DNA of 56,215 nt from an uncultured Planctomycetia bacterium. GTDB taxonomy: Bacteria; Omnitrophota; Gorgyraeia; CAYWPX01. The notes beneath the pieces are model-generated. The model was not told the origin of the DNA, did not search any database, and saw nothing but the letters and a program-made list of their open reading frames with translations. Positions 4,922 to 10,069 of the stretch are shown here, piece by piece. The stretch's first letter is position 1. Each line of letters begins with the position of its first letter. A program made the translations under genes and the position numbers. The stretch covers positions 1 to 56,215 of the forward strand of contig CAYWPX010000011.1 of NCBI GenBank assembly GCA_964460615.1. The letters run 5' to 3'.

Positions 4922-6448
4922 ATGTCTAATTTACAGTATAAAGAATATGGAGTTGTTAGAAAAATCAGAGGTTGTATTGTTACTGTTACAGGCCTCGAAA
5001 ATTGTATCAATGGCCAGCTTGTCAGGTTCGGCTTTGGTACGGAAGGTACGATAATTGGTTTTGATGAGGAAGAAACTCATGTACTTTTGGTAAAGGAAAA
5101 AGAATCTATTAAGACCGGCGATGCTGCCATAATGACCTTAGAGCCTTTTAATACCCCGGTAGGGAAAAATTTTGTAGGGAGGGTTGTAAATGTATTAGGC
5201 GAGCCAATGGATAACTTAGGTCCTTTGGCCCCTGATGCCTATTTTCCGATATTTGCGGATTCCCCGTCAGTTATGCAAAGAGAGGTAGTAAAAACTACTC
5301 TTGAGACGGGTATTAAACTGATAGATACTATGATACCTATTGGCAGAGGTCAAAGACAGTTGATACTTGGCGATAAAATGACAGGCAAAACTACCATAGG
5401 TACCGATATTATCTTAAATCAAAAAGGTAAGGATGTAATTTGTATATACTGTTGTATAGGAAAAGGCAAAGCGGCTCTAGATAGGGTTGTTAACCTGTTT
5501 AAGAGTAAAGATGCATTCCAGTATACTATTGTTGTTGCGGCAATGGCAGGCATTTCTCCCGGACAGCAGTATCTTGCACCGTACATTTCTTGCTCGCTCG
5601 GAGAGTACTTTATGAAAAAGGGCGGGCATGTATGCGTTATTTTTGATGATTTTACTAAACATGCGTGGGCTTATAGGGAAATATCACTTCTTTTGGGCAG
5701 GCCTCCCGGTAGGGAATCCTATCCCGGTGATATATTCTATCTCCATTCGCGTATGATAGAAAGAGCTGCTAAGCTTTCCAAAGAACTTGGCTTAGGGTCA
5801 ATGACTTTTTTCCCTATAGTCGAGCTTTTGGAAGGAGACCTTACGGGATACGTCTCTACAAATCTTGTTTCCATGACAGATGGACAGATATATCTCAGCA
5901 CTCCGCTTTTCAGTGAAGGTTTCCGTCCTGCGGTTGACAGCGGATTATCTGTATCTCGTATCGGTAATAAAGTCCAGTGGCCGGCAATGAAGAAGGTCAG
6001 CAAGTCCCTTAGGTTAGAGTATCTTCAATACAGGGATATATTAAAGACCTCAAGGTTAAAAGCCGGAGGCAAGAGCGAGGAGTCAATGGAACAGATGAAG
6101 GGCGGAGAAGTGTTGTCAGAGCTCCTTAAGCAGGATAAGGATAGCCCCTTAGATATGGAAGAAGAGATAGTGCTTTTTTATGGGTTAAGTAAAAAATATT
6201 TTCAAAGTCTAAATAGCAGTCAACTCAAAAAACTCCAAAAAGAGATTTATAAATACGCTAAAACAAATTGTCCCGATGCTATGAAAAAGCTTACTGAGAC
6301 CAAAGACCTTACACCTGATATAGAAGCGGAATTTGACAGAATTTATCAGGATTTTCTAAAGATATTGGAAGCCGAAGCATCAAGCGAAGAAAAAGAAGAG
6401 ATGGAAAAGGAAAGGAAAGTTAAGGCCGAAGCCCAGACTGTGGCCTAA
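4922..6448 (+). CDS. atpA: F-type ATPase alpha subunit (divergent)
   Basis: GRGQRQLILGDKMTGKTT matches the alpha P-loop region (canonical GDRQTGKT). 508 aa. GGAGAA RBS upstream. Confidence 0.9.
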   Translation: MSNLQYKEYGVVRKIRGCIVTVTGLENCINGQLVRFGFGTEGTIIGFDEEETHVLLVKEKESIKTGDAAIMTLEPFNTPVGKNFVGRVVNVLGEPMDNLGPLAPDAYFPIFADSPSVMQREVVKTTLETGIKLIDTMIPIGRGQRQLILGDKMTGKTTIGTDIILNQKGKDVICIYCCIGKGKAALDRVVNLFKSKDAFQYTIVVAAMAGISPGQQYLAPYISCSLGEYFMKKGGHVCVIFDDFTKHAWAYREISLLLGRPPGRESYPGDIFYLHSRMIERAAKLSKELGLGSMTFFPIVELLEGDLTGYVSTNLVSMTDGQIYLSTPLFSEGFRPAVDSGLSVSRIGNKVQWPAMKKVSKSLRLEYLQYRDILKTSRLKAGGKSEESMEQMKGGEVLSELLKQDKDSPLDMEEEIVLFYGLSKKYFQSLNSSQLKKLQKEIYKYAKTNCPDAMKKLTETKDLTPDIEAEFDRIYQDFLKILEAEASSEEKEEMEKERKVKAEAQTVA

Positions 6449-6452
6449 AATT

Positions 6453-6704
6453 ATGAGCGTACTAGGAAAATTCAAACTAAAAGTCATTAACCCTGACAGA
6501 ATGCTTTTTCAGGGAGATGTAACAACTGTTTTTTTGCAGGGGGATACTTGTGAGTTTGAGTTATTGGCTTATCATTATCCGGTCCTAAGCTTATTAAGGC
6601 AAGGCCAGGTTGTTATTGACTGGTCCCAATATATCCCGATAAGAAAAGGCTTAGTAAAATTTTTTAAAAATGATTGCACAATATTGGTGGAGTTAGACGA
6701 ATAA
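6453..6704 (+). CDS. atpC: F-type ATPase epsilon subunit, short form (N-terminal beta-sandwich only)
   Basis: KLKVINPDRMLFQGDVTTVFLQGDTCEFELLAYHYPVLSLL resembles the epsilon N-terminal domain. Only 83 aa, so there is no room for the C-terminal helical hairpin. Confidence 0.65.
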   Translation: MSVLGKFKLKVINPDRMLFQGDVTTVFLQGDTCEFELLAYHYPVLSLLRQGQVVIDWSQYIPIRKGLVKFFKNDCTILVELDE

Positions 6705-6707
6705 CAT

Positions 6708-6920
6708 ATGAATACATTAATCATATTATTTATCATGTTTATTGTTGTCGGCGGGCCGTCTGCGGTAATCGGTTTTTTAGGTTACGCGACTATTAAAGCC
6801 CTGGGGAGGAATCCGTCAGCCGCTTCAAAAATATTTATGGGGACGGTTTTGCTACTAGTTTTTGTCGAAGCAATATCTATTATTGCGCTTCTAGTTATAT
6901 TCCAGCTTTTTGGTACATAA
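6708..6920 (+). CDS. atpE: F-type ATPase c subunit (rotor ring proteolipid)
   Basis: 70 aa, two TM helices joined by the polar loop GRNPSAAS. Carboxylate in helix 2 (LVFVEAISII). Confidence 0.8.
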   Translation: MNTLIILFIMFIVVGGPSAVIGFLGYATIKALGRNPSAASKIFMGTVLLLVFVEAISIIALLVIFQLFGT

Positions 6921-7681: not shown

Positions 7682-7687
7682 AAGTTT

Positions 7688-8545
7688 ATGAGTAAAACTG
7701 CAAAAATCAAGTCAGATCTTGACGATATAACTAGTCTCGTTGAAATTATTCAGATCCTTAAAGACGTGGCCTCAAACCATTTTTATAATACTGCAAAAAG
7801 AAAAGAAAGGTTTGAGGAATTTGCTGAGGTTTTTACCGATTTTTTTAGGATGGTAAGTTTAGCAGAGGCAACAAGCCCGCTTGTTCATAGCCAGGTAGAT
7901 AAGGTAGCAATACTTGCTCTTACATCCGAAGGCGGGTTTATGGCTGAAATGACTGCAAAGGTTGTAAGGACCGCAGTGGCAGAGGCAGAGAAGTTTGATA
8001 CACACGAGTTTATTGTCATAGGTCAAAAGGGCGTCGAGAAGATGAGGACCATGACAACAAAAAAATTTACCAGTTTTGTAGGGATAGAAGATAAGGGGCT
8101 ATTTAAAACTGCCCTCGAGGTTAAAGATTATATTATACAACAGGTAGTCGAAGGGAACTATGGAAAGGTTTACGGAGTATATCCTAGGGCTAAGACAATA
8201 AATTTAATAAAGCCTTTTTCAGTTAAATTGCTTCCATCGGAAGAACTTATTACCAGACAAATTGAGATAAAAGATACGATTGAAAAGGTTATTGTTGAGT
8301 CAGATCTTAATAAAATTATACATTACCTTGCGGATATCTGGCTTACCTGCCGTCTTTATGAAATGCTTGAAGACTGTGTTGTGGCAGGTTTTGCTGCCCA
8401 AGCACAGCAATTAGAAGCAAGTTTGGAAAGGCTTAAAAAAGATAAGAAAGGGATTGCGCTTAATTTTGCTAAAGCAAAAAAAGGCGATATTGACAAAAGC
8501 TTAAGAGAGGTTTTTACAGCCTCGCTTATTACTGGAAGAAGGTAA
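7688..8545 (+). CDS. atpG: F-type ATPase gamma subunit (divergent)
   Basis: 285 aa. Position between b/delta and beta. N- and C-terminal helices typical of gamma (SDLDDITSLVEIIQILKDVAS..; ..LERLKKDKKGIALNFAKAKKGDIDKSLREVFTASL). Confidence 0.7.
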   Translation: MSKTAKIKSDLDDITSLVEIIQILKDVASNHFYNTAKRKERFEEFAEVFTDFFRMVSLAEATSPLVHSQVDKVAILALTSEGGFMAEMTAKVVRTAVAEAEKFDTHEFIVIGQKGVEKMRTMTTKKFTSFVGIEDKGLFKTALEVKDYIIQQVVEGNYGKVYGVYPRAKTINLIKPFSVKLLPSEELITRQIEIKDTIEKVIVESDLNKIIHYLADIWLTCRLYEMLEDCVVAGFAAQAQQLEASLERLKKDKKGIALNFAKAKKGDIDKSLREVFTASLITGRR

Positions 8546-8551
8546 TAAAAT

Positions 8552-10069
8552 ATGCCAGAAAAAAAGAATACGGAGCCTGATAATACACCAAACGAAGAGA
8601 CGCCGGCGGCTGATAGCGCTTTTTCGCAAAATAAGGATATAAACATAGAGACCAGACCTTCCGAATCCGAAATAAAGGTCAAGGATAGAAGAAGGGGCGG
8701 CAGGATGATCTCTGTTCAAGGGCCGGTTGTCGATGTGAGATTTGACCCCGGCGCGGAAATGCCGGCTCTTTTTGACATTTTGGAAACCAGGACTTTTGAC
8801 GGTAGAAAAGTTCTTTTGGAGGTTGCAGAGCATTTGGCCGGAGGTGTAGTGAGATGCATTTCCATCTCTTCAACGCTGAATTTACAGAAAAATGCCATGG
8901 CTTATGCTACAGATGCGCCTATTGTTATTCCTGTAGGAGACGAGATCTTTGGGAGAATTTTAGATGTTTCAGGAGGGCCGCTCGATAATAGGCCACCAGT
9001 CATTACTCAGCTTCATTCACCGATAAGAAAGGCTGTTCCTAAGTCTGTGTTTGATCTTTCAACGAAAATCGCCGAGAAACCGCAGATCCTTGAAACTGGC
9101 ATAAAGATGATAGATCTTCTTTACCCCCTTGTAAAAGGAAGTAAAAACGGAGTTCTTGGGGGAGCAGGTTGCGGTAAGACGGTTATCATCCTCGAACTAA
9201 TAAATAATATAGTAAAGAAACATAGCGGTGCCTGCGTATTTACAGGTATCGGAGAGCGCATAAGAGAGGGTAATGAGCTTTATTATGAACTTGCCGAACA
9301 TAATCTTTTAGAGAAGGTTATGATGGTGTTCGGTCAGATGGACCAGCCGCCAGGCGCCAGATATGAGATTGTTAATACAGGTATAACGCTCGCTGAATAC
9401 ATACAAAGCAAAAATAAAGACGTTTTATTATTCATGGATAATATATTTCGTTTTGTGCAGGGAGGGCAAGAGGTATCGATTCTTTTAGGCAGAGTCCCGT
9501 CGGAAACCGGCTATCAGCCGACTCTTGCGTCGGAAGTAGGAGCGGTACAAGAGAGAATCCGATCCATAAAAGGCGGAGGATCGATCACGGCTTTTCAGGC
9601 GGTATACGTTCCGGCTGATGATATGTCTGACCCCGCTGTTGTTGCTATATTTAGTTACCTGGATTCAGTATTAAAACTTTCAAGGGATCTTGTCCAGAAA
9701 GGTTTTTATCCTGCCATCGATCCCTTGTCTTCAAGCAGTACCAATCTTGATATCACAGTAGTTGGAAGGCGTCATTATGATGTTGCGCAAAAAGTAATTT
9801 CTATGATCAATAAATACAATCAACTTCACAAGATCGTCCAGGTTATCGGTGTTGAGGAGCTCTCTAAAAATGACAGAATGGATTATGAAAGGGCAGAAAA
9901 GATCCTATTTTTTATGACTCAGTCATTTTTTGTTTCAGAGGTTTATACCGGGAAAAAAGGTGAGTTTGTGACCATAGAAGAGACTATAGATAGCTGTGAG
10001 AGAATCCTAAGCGGAGAATTTGATAAAAAAGATGCAAGAAGCTTCTATATGATAGGAAAGGCTAAATAA
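8552..10069 (+). CDS. atpD: F-type ATPase beta subunit with ~50-aa low-complexity N-terminal extension (alternative start at 8705)
   Basis: [10 protein letters not shown]-loop, [48 protein letters not shown], and a DELSEED-like EELSKND. The canonical N-terminus [13 protein letters not shown] begins at 8705. Confidence 0.9.

Follow-up and report, generated by a model that had tools for sequence, protein, structure and literature searches.

The stretch of DNA considered here, contig CAYWPX010000011.1 (56,215 nucleotides, analysed over its whole 56 kb and called the window below), originates from Candidatus Omnitrophota and carries a six-gene F-type ATPase cluster with no recognizable a subunit, set between the genes for a large secreted repeat protein and an adjoining envelope protein, here called up451, on one side and those of a pilus/secretion machine on the other. 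The six open reading frames (ORFs) occupy 4922-10069 on the + strand, are separated by gaps of 4, 3, 23, 6 and 6 nucleotides, and run in the order alpha-epsilon-c-b/delta-gamma-beta. An earlier note on this DNA, drawn up from the sequence letters, had named these six genes and described gaps of 3-23 nucleotides; its coordinates hold, its gene identities are borne out by Pfam, and it was correct that this order matches neither the canonical nor the N-ATPase operon.

The locus is a member of the "symbiotic" (sF-ATP) F-type ATPase/type-4a pilus (T4aP) module of Omnitrophota, a locus type that is already published. According to Seymour et al. 2023 (Nat Microbiol, PMC10066038), such ATPase clusters lie beside type-4a pilus clusters in every Omnitrophota class, and 57 of 66 contigs have the two within 10 kb of one another; alpha is reported to group with the type-2 and type-3 ATPases of Mycoplasma; giant ORFs occur in the same genomes; and the role proposed is a non-respiratory one in attachment and motility on host cells, reasoned from the alpha phylogeny and the co-location within 10 kb. 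The window corresponds in both respects, as an Omnitrophota genome whose ATPase genes lie less than 10 kb from a pilus cluster. In what is accessible of the main text and supplements of PMC10066038, no mention was found of a missing a subunit, a retained c ring, a truncated b/delta, up451 or a variable gene order. The features that appear to be under-described are the a-less state, the truncated stator, the graded erosion of Fo, the junction between beta and GspE, and up451, and these are the subject of what follows.

The six ATPase genes and their relatives

Relatives were collected mainly through gamma. A gamma-profile scan of the GTDB species representatives gave 62 loci, all in Omnitrophota metagenome-assembled genomes (MAGs) and with gamma identities of 33-68%, which were annotated locally with phmmer; additional loci seeded with up451 or the gamma profile bring the total to about 75, with at most 10 kb of flank covered per locus. 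Among gamma homologues at 50-80% identity, nearly all the named ones are from Omnitrophota, and two bear archaeal MAG labels (P0031, P0107). A full HMMER scan with the gamma profile returned 2405 matches at E<=1e-3 among 1.84 billion representatives, in which canonical gammas reach only about 90 bits; members at 110-170 bits still have a GspE-type gene and GspF downstream, and ATP-synt_A is still absent. All relatives found with gamma or up451 are pilus-linked and a-less, a proxy by which alpha may belong to the "symbiotic" and not the "respiratory" Omnitrophota clade. As a side matter, many third-party MAGs in ENA that carry the module are titled "uncultured Planctomycetales/Planctomycetia bacterium", a label that is probably coarse or mistaken. 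One groundwater Omnitrophota MAG (JACPXL01) holds two copies of the module of repeat protein, up451, ATPase and type II secretion system (T2SS), on different contigs (L048, L054).

Alpha (4922-6448, + strand, 508 aa) matches Pfam ATP-synt_ab at 1.9e-69 plus ATP-synt_ab_C, and beta (8552-10069, + strand, 505 aa) matches ATP-synt_ab at 1e-68. Both pass the NCBIfam equivalog cut-offs for the ordinary synthase subunits, alpha with 513 bits against TIGR00962 (atpA; cut-off 484), aligned from model position 22, and beta with 548 bits against TIGR01039 (atpD; cut-off 463). In PDB searches each scores about 450 bits against canonical F1 subunits, and beta scores 348 bits against the beta of the Mycoplasma mobile G1-ATPase (9io5_A). 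The P-loops read GDKMTGKT in alpha and GGAGCGKT in beta, just as the earlier note gave them, and its observation that the catalytic beta motifs are retained extends well beyond the window: GGAGCGK(T/S), with its unusual Cys, GERxREGN, DNIFRF and YVPADD are kept across the family (51-60 sequences), and the alpha motif GDxxTGKT and the SVSR Arg finger are kept in 51 family members. Because these catalytic motifs are conserved across the family, the predicted F1 head reads clearly as functional. At the N termini, beta has an unconserved extension of about 50 aa, and alpha is without the first 20 or so canonical residues, its PDB alignments beginning at chain residue 22-29.

The small subunits are the divergent ones, since gamma, epsilon, c and b/delta all miss their NCBIfam equivalog cut-offs by far. 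Gamma (7688-8545, + strand, 285 aa; Pfam ATP-synt 3.5e-22) reaches 63 bits against TIGR01146, far under the cut-off of 194, and is the best marker of the ATPase family; its divergence fits a 2026 preprint in which KEGG orthology (KO) terms for alpha and beta were assigned in 125 of 176 complete genomes and that for gamma in 30 of 176. Epsilon (6453-6704, + strand, 83 aa; Pfam ATP-synt_DE_N 1.1e-11 over residues 7-80) consists in the window of the beta-sandwich domain only, and the C-terminal inhibitory helices are absent. In bacterial enzymes these helices inhibit hydrolysis. The b/delta fusion (6944-7681, + strand, 245 aa; Pfam OSCP 9.6e-14 and a weak ATP-synt_B) is built from an N-terminal transmembrane (TM) helix, a coiled coil resembling that of b and, of delta, the C-terminal domain alone: the OSCP match covers profile positions 102-167, and the delta N-terminal domain is missing. 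PDB alignments agree, with residues 6-122 resembling subunit b and residues 159-232 resembling residues 97-170 of E. coli delta, and over its full length the fusion also weakly matches the N-ATPase b model TIGR03321. The delta N-terminal domain binds the alpha N terminus in canonical F1Fo enzymes. Because the delta profile is matched only in part, because alpha starts near canonical position 22, and in light of the known F1Fo structures, this domain and its binding helix on alpha appear to have been lost together.

The c subunit (6708-6920, + strand) is a 70-aa hairpin that scores 28.6 bits against Pfam ATP-synt_C (cut-off 24), finds weak PDB matches to F-type c subunits, and surpasses all other proteins of the set in conservation. 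Its Glu54 lies in TM2, and Glu is invariant there in 61 of 61 family members, also in distant variants, as is the loop GRNPSAA(S/P)K. That c keeps its carboxylate and shows no sodium motif, as the earlier note had it, stands: in the window protein Ala follows at +1, and the site in helix 1 where Na+-binding c subunits carry Gln is taken by a hydrophobic residue. In 38 of 61 loci (e.g. L001, 8985-9212) a paralogous c-like hairpin of about 73 aa, c2, is encoded between c and b/delta; it is absent from the window and from the window clade. Its loop is LGRYPSKTPAIQ, and its TM2 Glu is usually present; L045 and L053 have lost it, and L021 has Gln in its place. The c2 protein could form a hetero-oligomeric ring with c or be a ring-associated subunit. 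In sum, the cluster comprises a complete, conserved F1 head whose Walker, catalytic-Glu and Arg-finger motifs are intact, gamma as the shaft, an epsilon that is reduced, a c that keeps its carboxylate, and a membrane-anchored stalk in the form of a single-chain b/delta.

No a subunit accompanies these genes. Pfam searches covered the window ORFs that are 100 aa or longer and not contained in a larger one, over the whole 56 kb, and gave no match to ATP-synt_A, and a hydropathy screen of the window left no polytopic ORF of 200-300 aa unaccounted for. A regular expression for the a-subunit motif found nothing in the window or in 66 loci, and neither did a relaxed phmmer search with an approximate E. 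coli AtpB query. The earlier note's statement that the window holds no a subunit withstands these searches, and the Pfam searches it had proposed matched ATP-synt_ab, OSCP and ATP-synt_DE_N, with no ATP-synt_A. AtpI is likewise absent from the window, and so are AtpQ/AtpR and any extra small membrane genes. Nor was an a subunit found in the up to 10 kb of flank covered for each of the roughly 75 related loci. The source data of Seymour et al. 2023 for one example genome (221) list K02111 and K02112 as present and K02108, K02109 and K02110 as missing. The possibility that an a-like domain is hidden inside the giant upstream protein was rejected for locus L034, where a complete orthologue has no polytopic region and no a-like TM domain.

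The second constant feature lies at the other end of the cluster. Three nucleotides after beta begins a gene for a GspE/PilB-type assembly ATPase (10073-12361, + strand; Pfam T2SSE 2.8e-125, N-terminal MshEN 6.7e-14, C-terminal PilZ 2.7e-08). The earlier note had asked whether the gene order beside gspE recurs in relatives, and the junction does: in all of the roughly 75 loci beta is followed on the same strand by a GspE-type gene and GspF, with direct adjacency in nearly every one, the exceptions being three loci in which small MshEN-only genes (L075, L078) or one inserted gene (L077) intervene. Pseudopilin genes follow GspE-GspF on the same strand. What varies is the internal order of the ATPase genes, of which there are at least 4 versions: L073 has epsilon-b/delta-c-alpha-gamma-beta, L074 has b/delta-c-alpha-gamma-beta, L076 has epsilon-c-x-b/delta-alpha-gamma-beta, and L075 has b/delta-alpha-gamma-beta, with no c gene at all. 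The epsilon gene is absent in at least 8 loci (L048, L051, L054, L058, L060, L071, L074, L075). Since the internal orders vary and the a-less state and the beta-GspE-GspF junction stay, these two are the invariants of the family, and the order seen in the window is one derived arrangement among several. Small genes for four-helix-bundle proteins of the 23S_rRNA_IVP/bAvd-like kind were also noticed as insertions inside or just after the ATPase cluster of two distant variants (L076, 7300-7704; L077, 4387-4767).

From the same inventory one could argue that the cluster is what decay has left of an earlier atp operon and that it now lacks a function, given the loss of a, of the epsilon C-domain and of the delta N-domain, and the complete loss of epsilon or c in some lineages. 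Decay is hard to reconcile with the facts that every reading frame is intact, that the catalytic residues and c are under strong purifying selection over gamma identities from 33% to 80%, and that the cluster is kept in 62 species representatives and in two copies in one MAG. On this conservation the pseudogene or relic explanation was rejected, and we give it practically no chance.

The pilus/secretion genes, the upstream proteins and the rest of the window

Beyond GspE, the T2SS/T4aP-like machine continues at 12368-19297 on the + strand with GspF, a GspG-like major pseudopilin, two N-methyl pseudopilins, GspK, a PilM-PilN fusion, a PilO-like protein and a tetratricopeptide (TPR) protein, the Pfam matches of the machine as a whole being T2SSE, T2SSF, T2SSG, N_methyl, T2SSK_1st, PilM_2 with PilN, and PilO/T2SSM_b. 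The order is the same in relatives. In these the co-directional block runs from the giant repeat protein through up451, alpha, epsilon, c, (c2), b/delta, gamma and beta to GspE, with its MshEN and PilZ domains, and GspF, and then continues through a Peptidase_MA protein (in many loci), GspG, two pseudopilins, GspK, the PilM-N fusion, PilO and the TPR protein. Neither a secretin nor a prepilin peptidase was matched by Pfam among the window ORFs; both may be encoded elsewhere. No convincing intergenic terminator was found on the + strand in window positions 1-20000, and the repeat protein, up451, the ATPase genes and the GspE/F/G/K-PilMNO genes are probably one long co-directional operon.

The upstream end of this block is occupied by the large secreted repeat protein (3-3545, + strand), which consists of 73 copies of a 13-aa "G(I/V)NW" repeat and a C-terminal domain. 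By way of correction, the reading frame is open to base 3 and the gene is cut by the window edge. The repeats are nearly perfect, with a consensus of about xxSxAG(I/V)NWxDL and an NW spacing of 13 aa in 71 of 72 intervals, and the C-terminal domain is conserved, helical and about 250 aa long. The sole Pfam match, to lysostaphin N-terminal repeats, is below threshold (56 bits, cut-off 60). In nearly all loci a homologue takes this place, and orthologues reach at least 7092 aa (L001, 7092 aa). In L034 the protein is complete and shows a signal peptide, an N-terminal stretch that looks LamG-like by eye, the repeats and the C-terminal domain; Laminin_G_3 was detected by Pfam only in the giant protein of L076. 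A protein search with the C-terminal domain gave 7 matches, all fragments.

Between the repeat protein and alpha lies up451 (3527-4882, + strand), a bitopic envelope protein of about 450 aa. A signal peptide opens it, two beta-rich domains come next, each with long helices behind it, and a TM helix at the C-terminal end and a short basic tail complete it. Nearly every related locus has up451 upstream of the ATPase genes (53 loci in the gamma-based set), directly before alpha where the order is that of the window. Loci seeded with up451 have the same arrangement as those found with gamma, and a metagenome scan with a narrow up451 alignment gave 3 loci with the ATPase present in 3 of 3. No Pfam or NCBIfam family matches up451; its AlphaFold2 model is decent at the local level (pLDDT 79) but has a low pTM of 0.39, and Foldseek against PDB returned nothing at E<=1e-3. 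Variants include a half-size form in L076 and a fusion to GGDEF (diguanylate cyclase) in L074 (5390-7246). Since MshEN and PilZ are domain types that bind cyclic di-GMP (c-di-GMP), their presence in GspE, together with the stand-alone MshEN genes of L075 and L078 and the up451-GGDEF fusion, suggests that the module is under c-di-GMP control. A stand-alone PilZ protein and a CBS-pair protein are also encoded near the module, at window positions 33255-34455, and the same pair stands directly upstream of up451 in L069 (2772-3748), a locus that lacks the giant protein.

Convergent to the pilus operon, at 19302-24852 on the - strand, are genes for an 823-aa STT3-type oligosaccharyltransferase, an S41 (Ctp-like) peptidase with PDZ, and a 585-aa membrane protein that has no Pfam family. 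These could serve the glycosylation or processing of pilins or of the adhesin. A surface-glycan cluster at 26185-32972 contains two GT2 glycosyltransferases, an LPG_synthase_TM-family membrane protein, a UDP-GlcNAc 2-epimerase, a methyltransferase and a 699-aa protein with 12 TM helices and no Pfam family. There are two genes of the glycogen/alpha-glucan phosphorylase family, one full-length (34973-37456; 827 aa, 1097 bits) and one divergent (41480-43489; 669 aa), each followed by a response-regulator gene. A complete efflux operon at 46584-52820 encodes an outer-membrane factor (OEP), a HlyD-type adaptor, two ABC ATPases and two ABC-2 permeases, and confirms a diderm envelope. GC skew is positive in 27 of 28 2-kb bins, the cumulative skew rises steadily and the + strand carries the majority of the genes, a pattern to be expected of a leading-strand segment that contains neither origin nor terminus.

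What the a-less ATPase may do

With moderate confidence, we favor the view that the locus encodes a rotary motor that hydrolyses ATP, has no proton channel and works for the pilus/secretion and adhesin system encoded alongside it. It is the reading best supported by the pattern of losses, in that the ion-translocating and regulatory parts are either missing (a, the epsilon C-domain, the delta N-domain) or dispensable in relatives (epsilon, c), and by the V-type enzymes of relatives. The lost inhibitory helices of epsilon fit an enzyme working in the direction of hydrolysis. The evidence that would tie the ATPase to the pilus machine is synteny; judged by gene order, the ATPase and the pilus/secretion genes are evidently under strong selection as a unit. 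The earlier note had offered two readings, a split atp system and a specialized ATPase tied to the surface and pilus apparatus. It is the second that the linkage in all loci and the published reading favor; the split system is less supported.

Such a complex would run in an ATP-hydrolysing rotary mode and not as an ion-driven synthase or pump. The b/delta protein would tether the alpha3beta3 head to the inner membrane, and ATP hydrolysis would turn gamma, with or without epsilon, along with the c ring joined to it. In the absence of half-channels of the a type, this rotation would do no ion work. The pilus/adhesin apparatus could instead draw on it, either directly or by way of up451, GspF or the PilMNO platform, when these ultra-small bacteria attach, move over surfaces or export in their host-associated lifestyle. 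Housekeeping ion-coupled ATP synthesis would then fall to another enzyme, V/A-type or respiratory F-type, as documented in relatives. The 2026 preprint reports V/A-type subunits in 70-99% of the complete genomes of Gorgyraeia other than Pluralincolimonadales, and the Ca. Aceula MAGs of Ace Lake, which carry the ATPase/pilus locus (L043, L044), are described as using a V-type ATP synthase.

Several points weigh against the motor. The c carboxylate and most of TM2 are invariant in 61 or more members, which is what one expects of a ring that meets an Arg-bearing stator, so that an a subunit or an analogue of it may exist elsewhere. Alpha and beta, as noted above, pass as ordinary atpA and atpD products. 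We infer the coupling mechanism from synteny only. The locus without c (L075) makes the c ring doubtful as a torque element: it is not universally required and may not be the part that transmits torque. Moreover, the TM helices of up451, GspF, PilMN and PilO hold no conserved charged residue that would hint at a substitute stator. A substitute stator was sought among c2, up451, GspF, PilMN and PilO and found unsupported, there being no conserved Arg/Lys inside their TM helices and, for c2, given its absence from the window clade and the loss of its Glu in some loci.

Some of these same observations would follow if the ATPase were an ordinary ion-translocating F1Fo whose a subunit (perhaps with AtpI) is encoded elsewhere, and whose pilus neighborhood is an inherited gene order without mechanical coupling. 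The invariant Glu and TM2 of the c ring, the atpA and atpD scores and the 450 bits or so to canonical F1 subunits are all in its favor, and there is precedent in the lone atpB genes known in some bacteria, such as Helicobacter and Campylobacter. It must then be explained why a is absent from the flanks of all the loci surveyed while the other subunits stay clustered, and why the GspE adjacency has outlasted at least 4 rearrangements, which argues for selection on the linkage. The loss of epsilon, of the delta N-domain and, in L075, of c is hard to square with a coupled ion machine, and the KO table of one alpha/beta-bearing genome lacks K02108. Relatives described as relying on a V-type ATP synthase also speak against it. 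On balance we consider an ordinary F1Fo, the main rival to the motor, unlikely.

A bolder form of the motor, which we put forward tentatively and hold to be possible at best, is a new kind of envelope motor. Here the c ring, released from its part in ion transport, would be spun by the F1 head, with torque or a cycle of conformational change passed on to the pilus platform, to up451 or to the giant adhesin, and the c Glu would engage a new stator or partner other than a. The whole would be a rotary actuator driven by ATP, by which ultra-small predatory or epibiotic bacteria attach, glide or export. The series of epsilon and c losses would then represent the stepwise conversion of a synthase to a mechanical ATPase, parallel to the Mycoplasma gliding motor and independent of it.

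True membership in the Mycoplasma type 2/type 3 F1-like ATPases (the G1-ATPase lineage), with the same working mode, is a different proposal, and one suggested by the alpha clustering in PMC10066038. The analogy is also attractive, in that an F1-like ATPase and giant surface proteins are again combined in a host-attached, ultra-small bacterium. The scores tell otherwise: the window proteins fall under the curated cut-offs for MMOB1660 (400 vs 600 bits), MMOB1670 (434 vs 850), MSC_0619 (288 vs 520) and MSC_0618 (408 vs 570) and pass the generic atpA and atpD models, beta is closer to canonical F1 (about 450 bits) than to G1 (348 bits), and the G1 alpha is outside the top 60 alpha matches. A tree that groups two fast-evolving lineages can reflect long-branch attraction. 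Finally, genes for c, b, delta and epsilon are lacking from the Mycoplasma type 2/3 clusters, and the window has counterparts of all four. Membership was rejected on the curated cut-offs and gene composition, and as an account of the locus we regard it as improbable.

ATP synthases are among the most conserved of machines, and few F-type enzymes have been put to another use, with the Mycoplasma gliding motor as the main case. If the motor reading is right, the Omnitrophota module would be a second repurposed F-type enzyme, in a diderm, with the membrane ring kept, and tied to a pilus/secretion system and to giant adhesins, the presumed basis of a predatory or epibiotic way of life. The architecture turns a loose co-location into testable questions, namely what holds the c ring and what its rotation drives.

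Comparison with known systems

Among other ATPases of the F1 fold, the flagellar and type III secretion system (T3SS) ATPases FliI/SctN provide the precedent for a non-synthase use, an F1-related ATPase with a gamma-like stalk protein serving envelope-spanning export. They differ in being T3SS homo-hexamers that are only distant relatives of alpha/beta; the window proteins score about 185 bits against cut-offs of about 600, and the window has genes for a hetero-hexamer with stalk and ring and a T2SS/T4P-like partner. The mycobacterial b-delta fusion (PDB 7jg5_d) similarly unites b and delta in one polypeptide, but at 445 aa it includes the whole of delta, whereas the 245-aa fusion in the window has the delta C-terminal domain only. 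The N-ATPase (atpDCQRBEFAG) shares a non-canonical order, its nature as an accessory operon, and a b of about 246 aa with no separate delta gene. It has an a subunit, AtpQ/AtpR and a c with the Na+ motif, none of which is found in the window. Assignment to N-ATPases was rejected, with alpha at 477 vs 750.5 bits (TIGR03324) and beta at 478 vs 752 bits (TIGR03305), and with order and composition that do not agree.

With the canonical F1Fo (atpIBEFHAGDC), the likeness is one of parts: alpha, beta, gamma, the epsilon N-domain, the c carboxylate and the b/delta stalk are recognizably F-type. The window differs in having no a, AtpI, delta N-domain, epsilon C-domain or first 20 or so alpha residues, in the invariant Cys of the beta P-loop, and in the embedding of the cluster in a pilus/secretion operon. 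Thus the window ATPase is F-type by descent, without the defining a subunit and the full peripheral stalk.

The Mycoplasma type 2 (MMOB1660/1670) and type 3 (MSC_0618/0619) systems are likewise derived from F1, have no a and are not ATP synthases, and type 2 is a hydrolysis motor for surface motility that works with giant surface proteins. The window alpha and beta are nearer to canonical F1 than to the Mycoplasma subunits, and c, b/delta and epsilon are kept. The Mycoplasma beta has a long N-terminal domain, and the partner in the window is instead a diderm-type T2SS/T4aP machine. The closest likeness is to the sF-ATPase/T4aP loci described by Seymour et al. 2023 (PMC10066038): the phylum is the same, the alpha and beta genes likewise stand beside a T4aP/T2SS-like cluster, and nothing essential is different, so that the window is an instance of that locus type. 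It adds no new kind of system; what it contributes is a sharper architectural picture of a known one.

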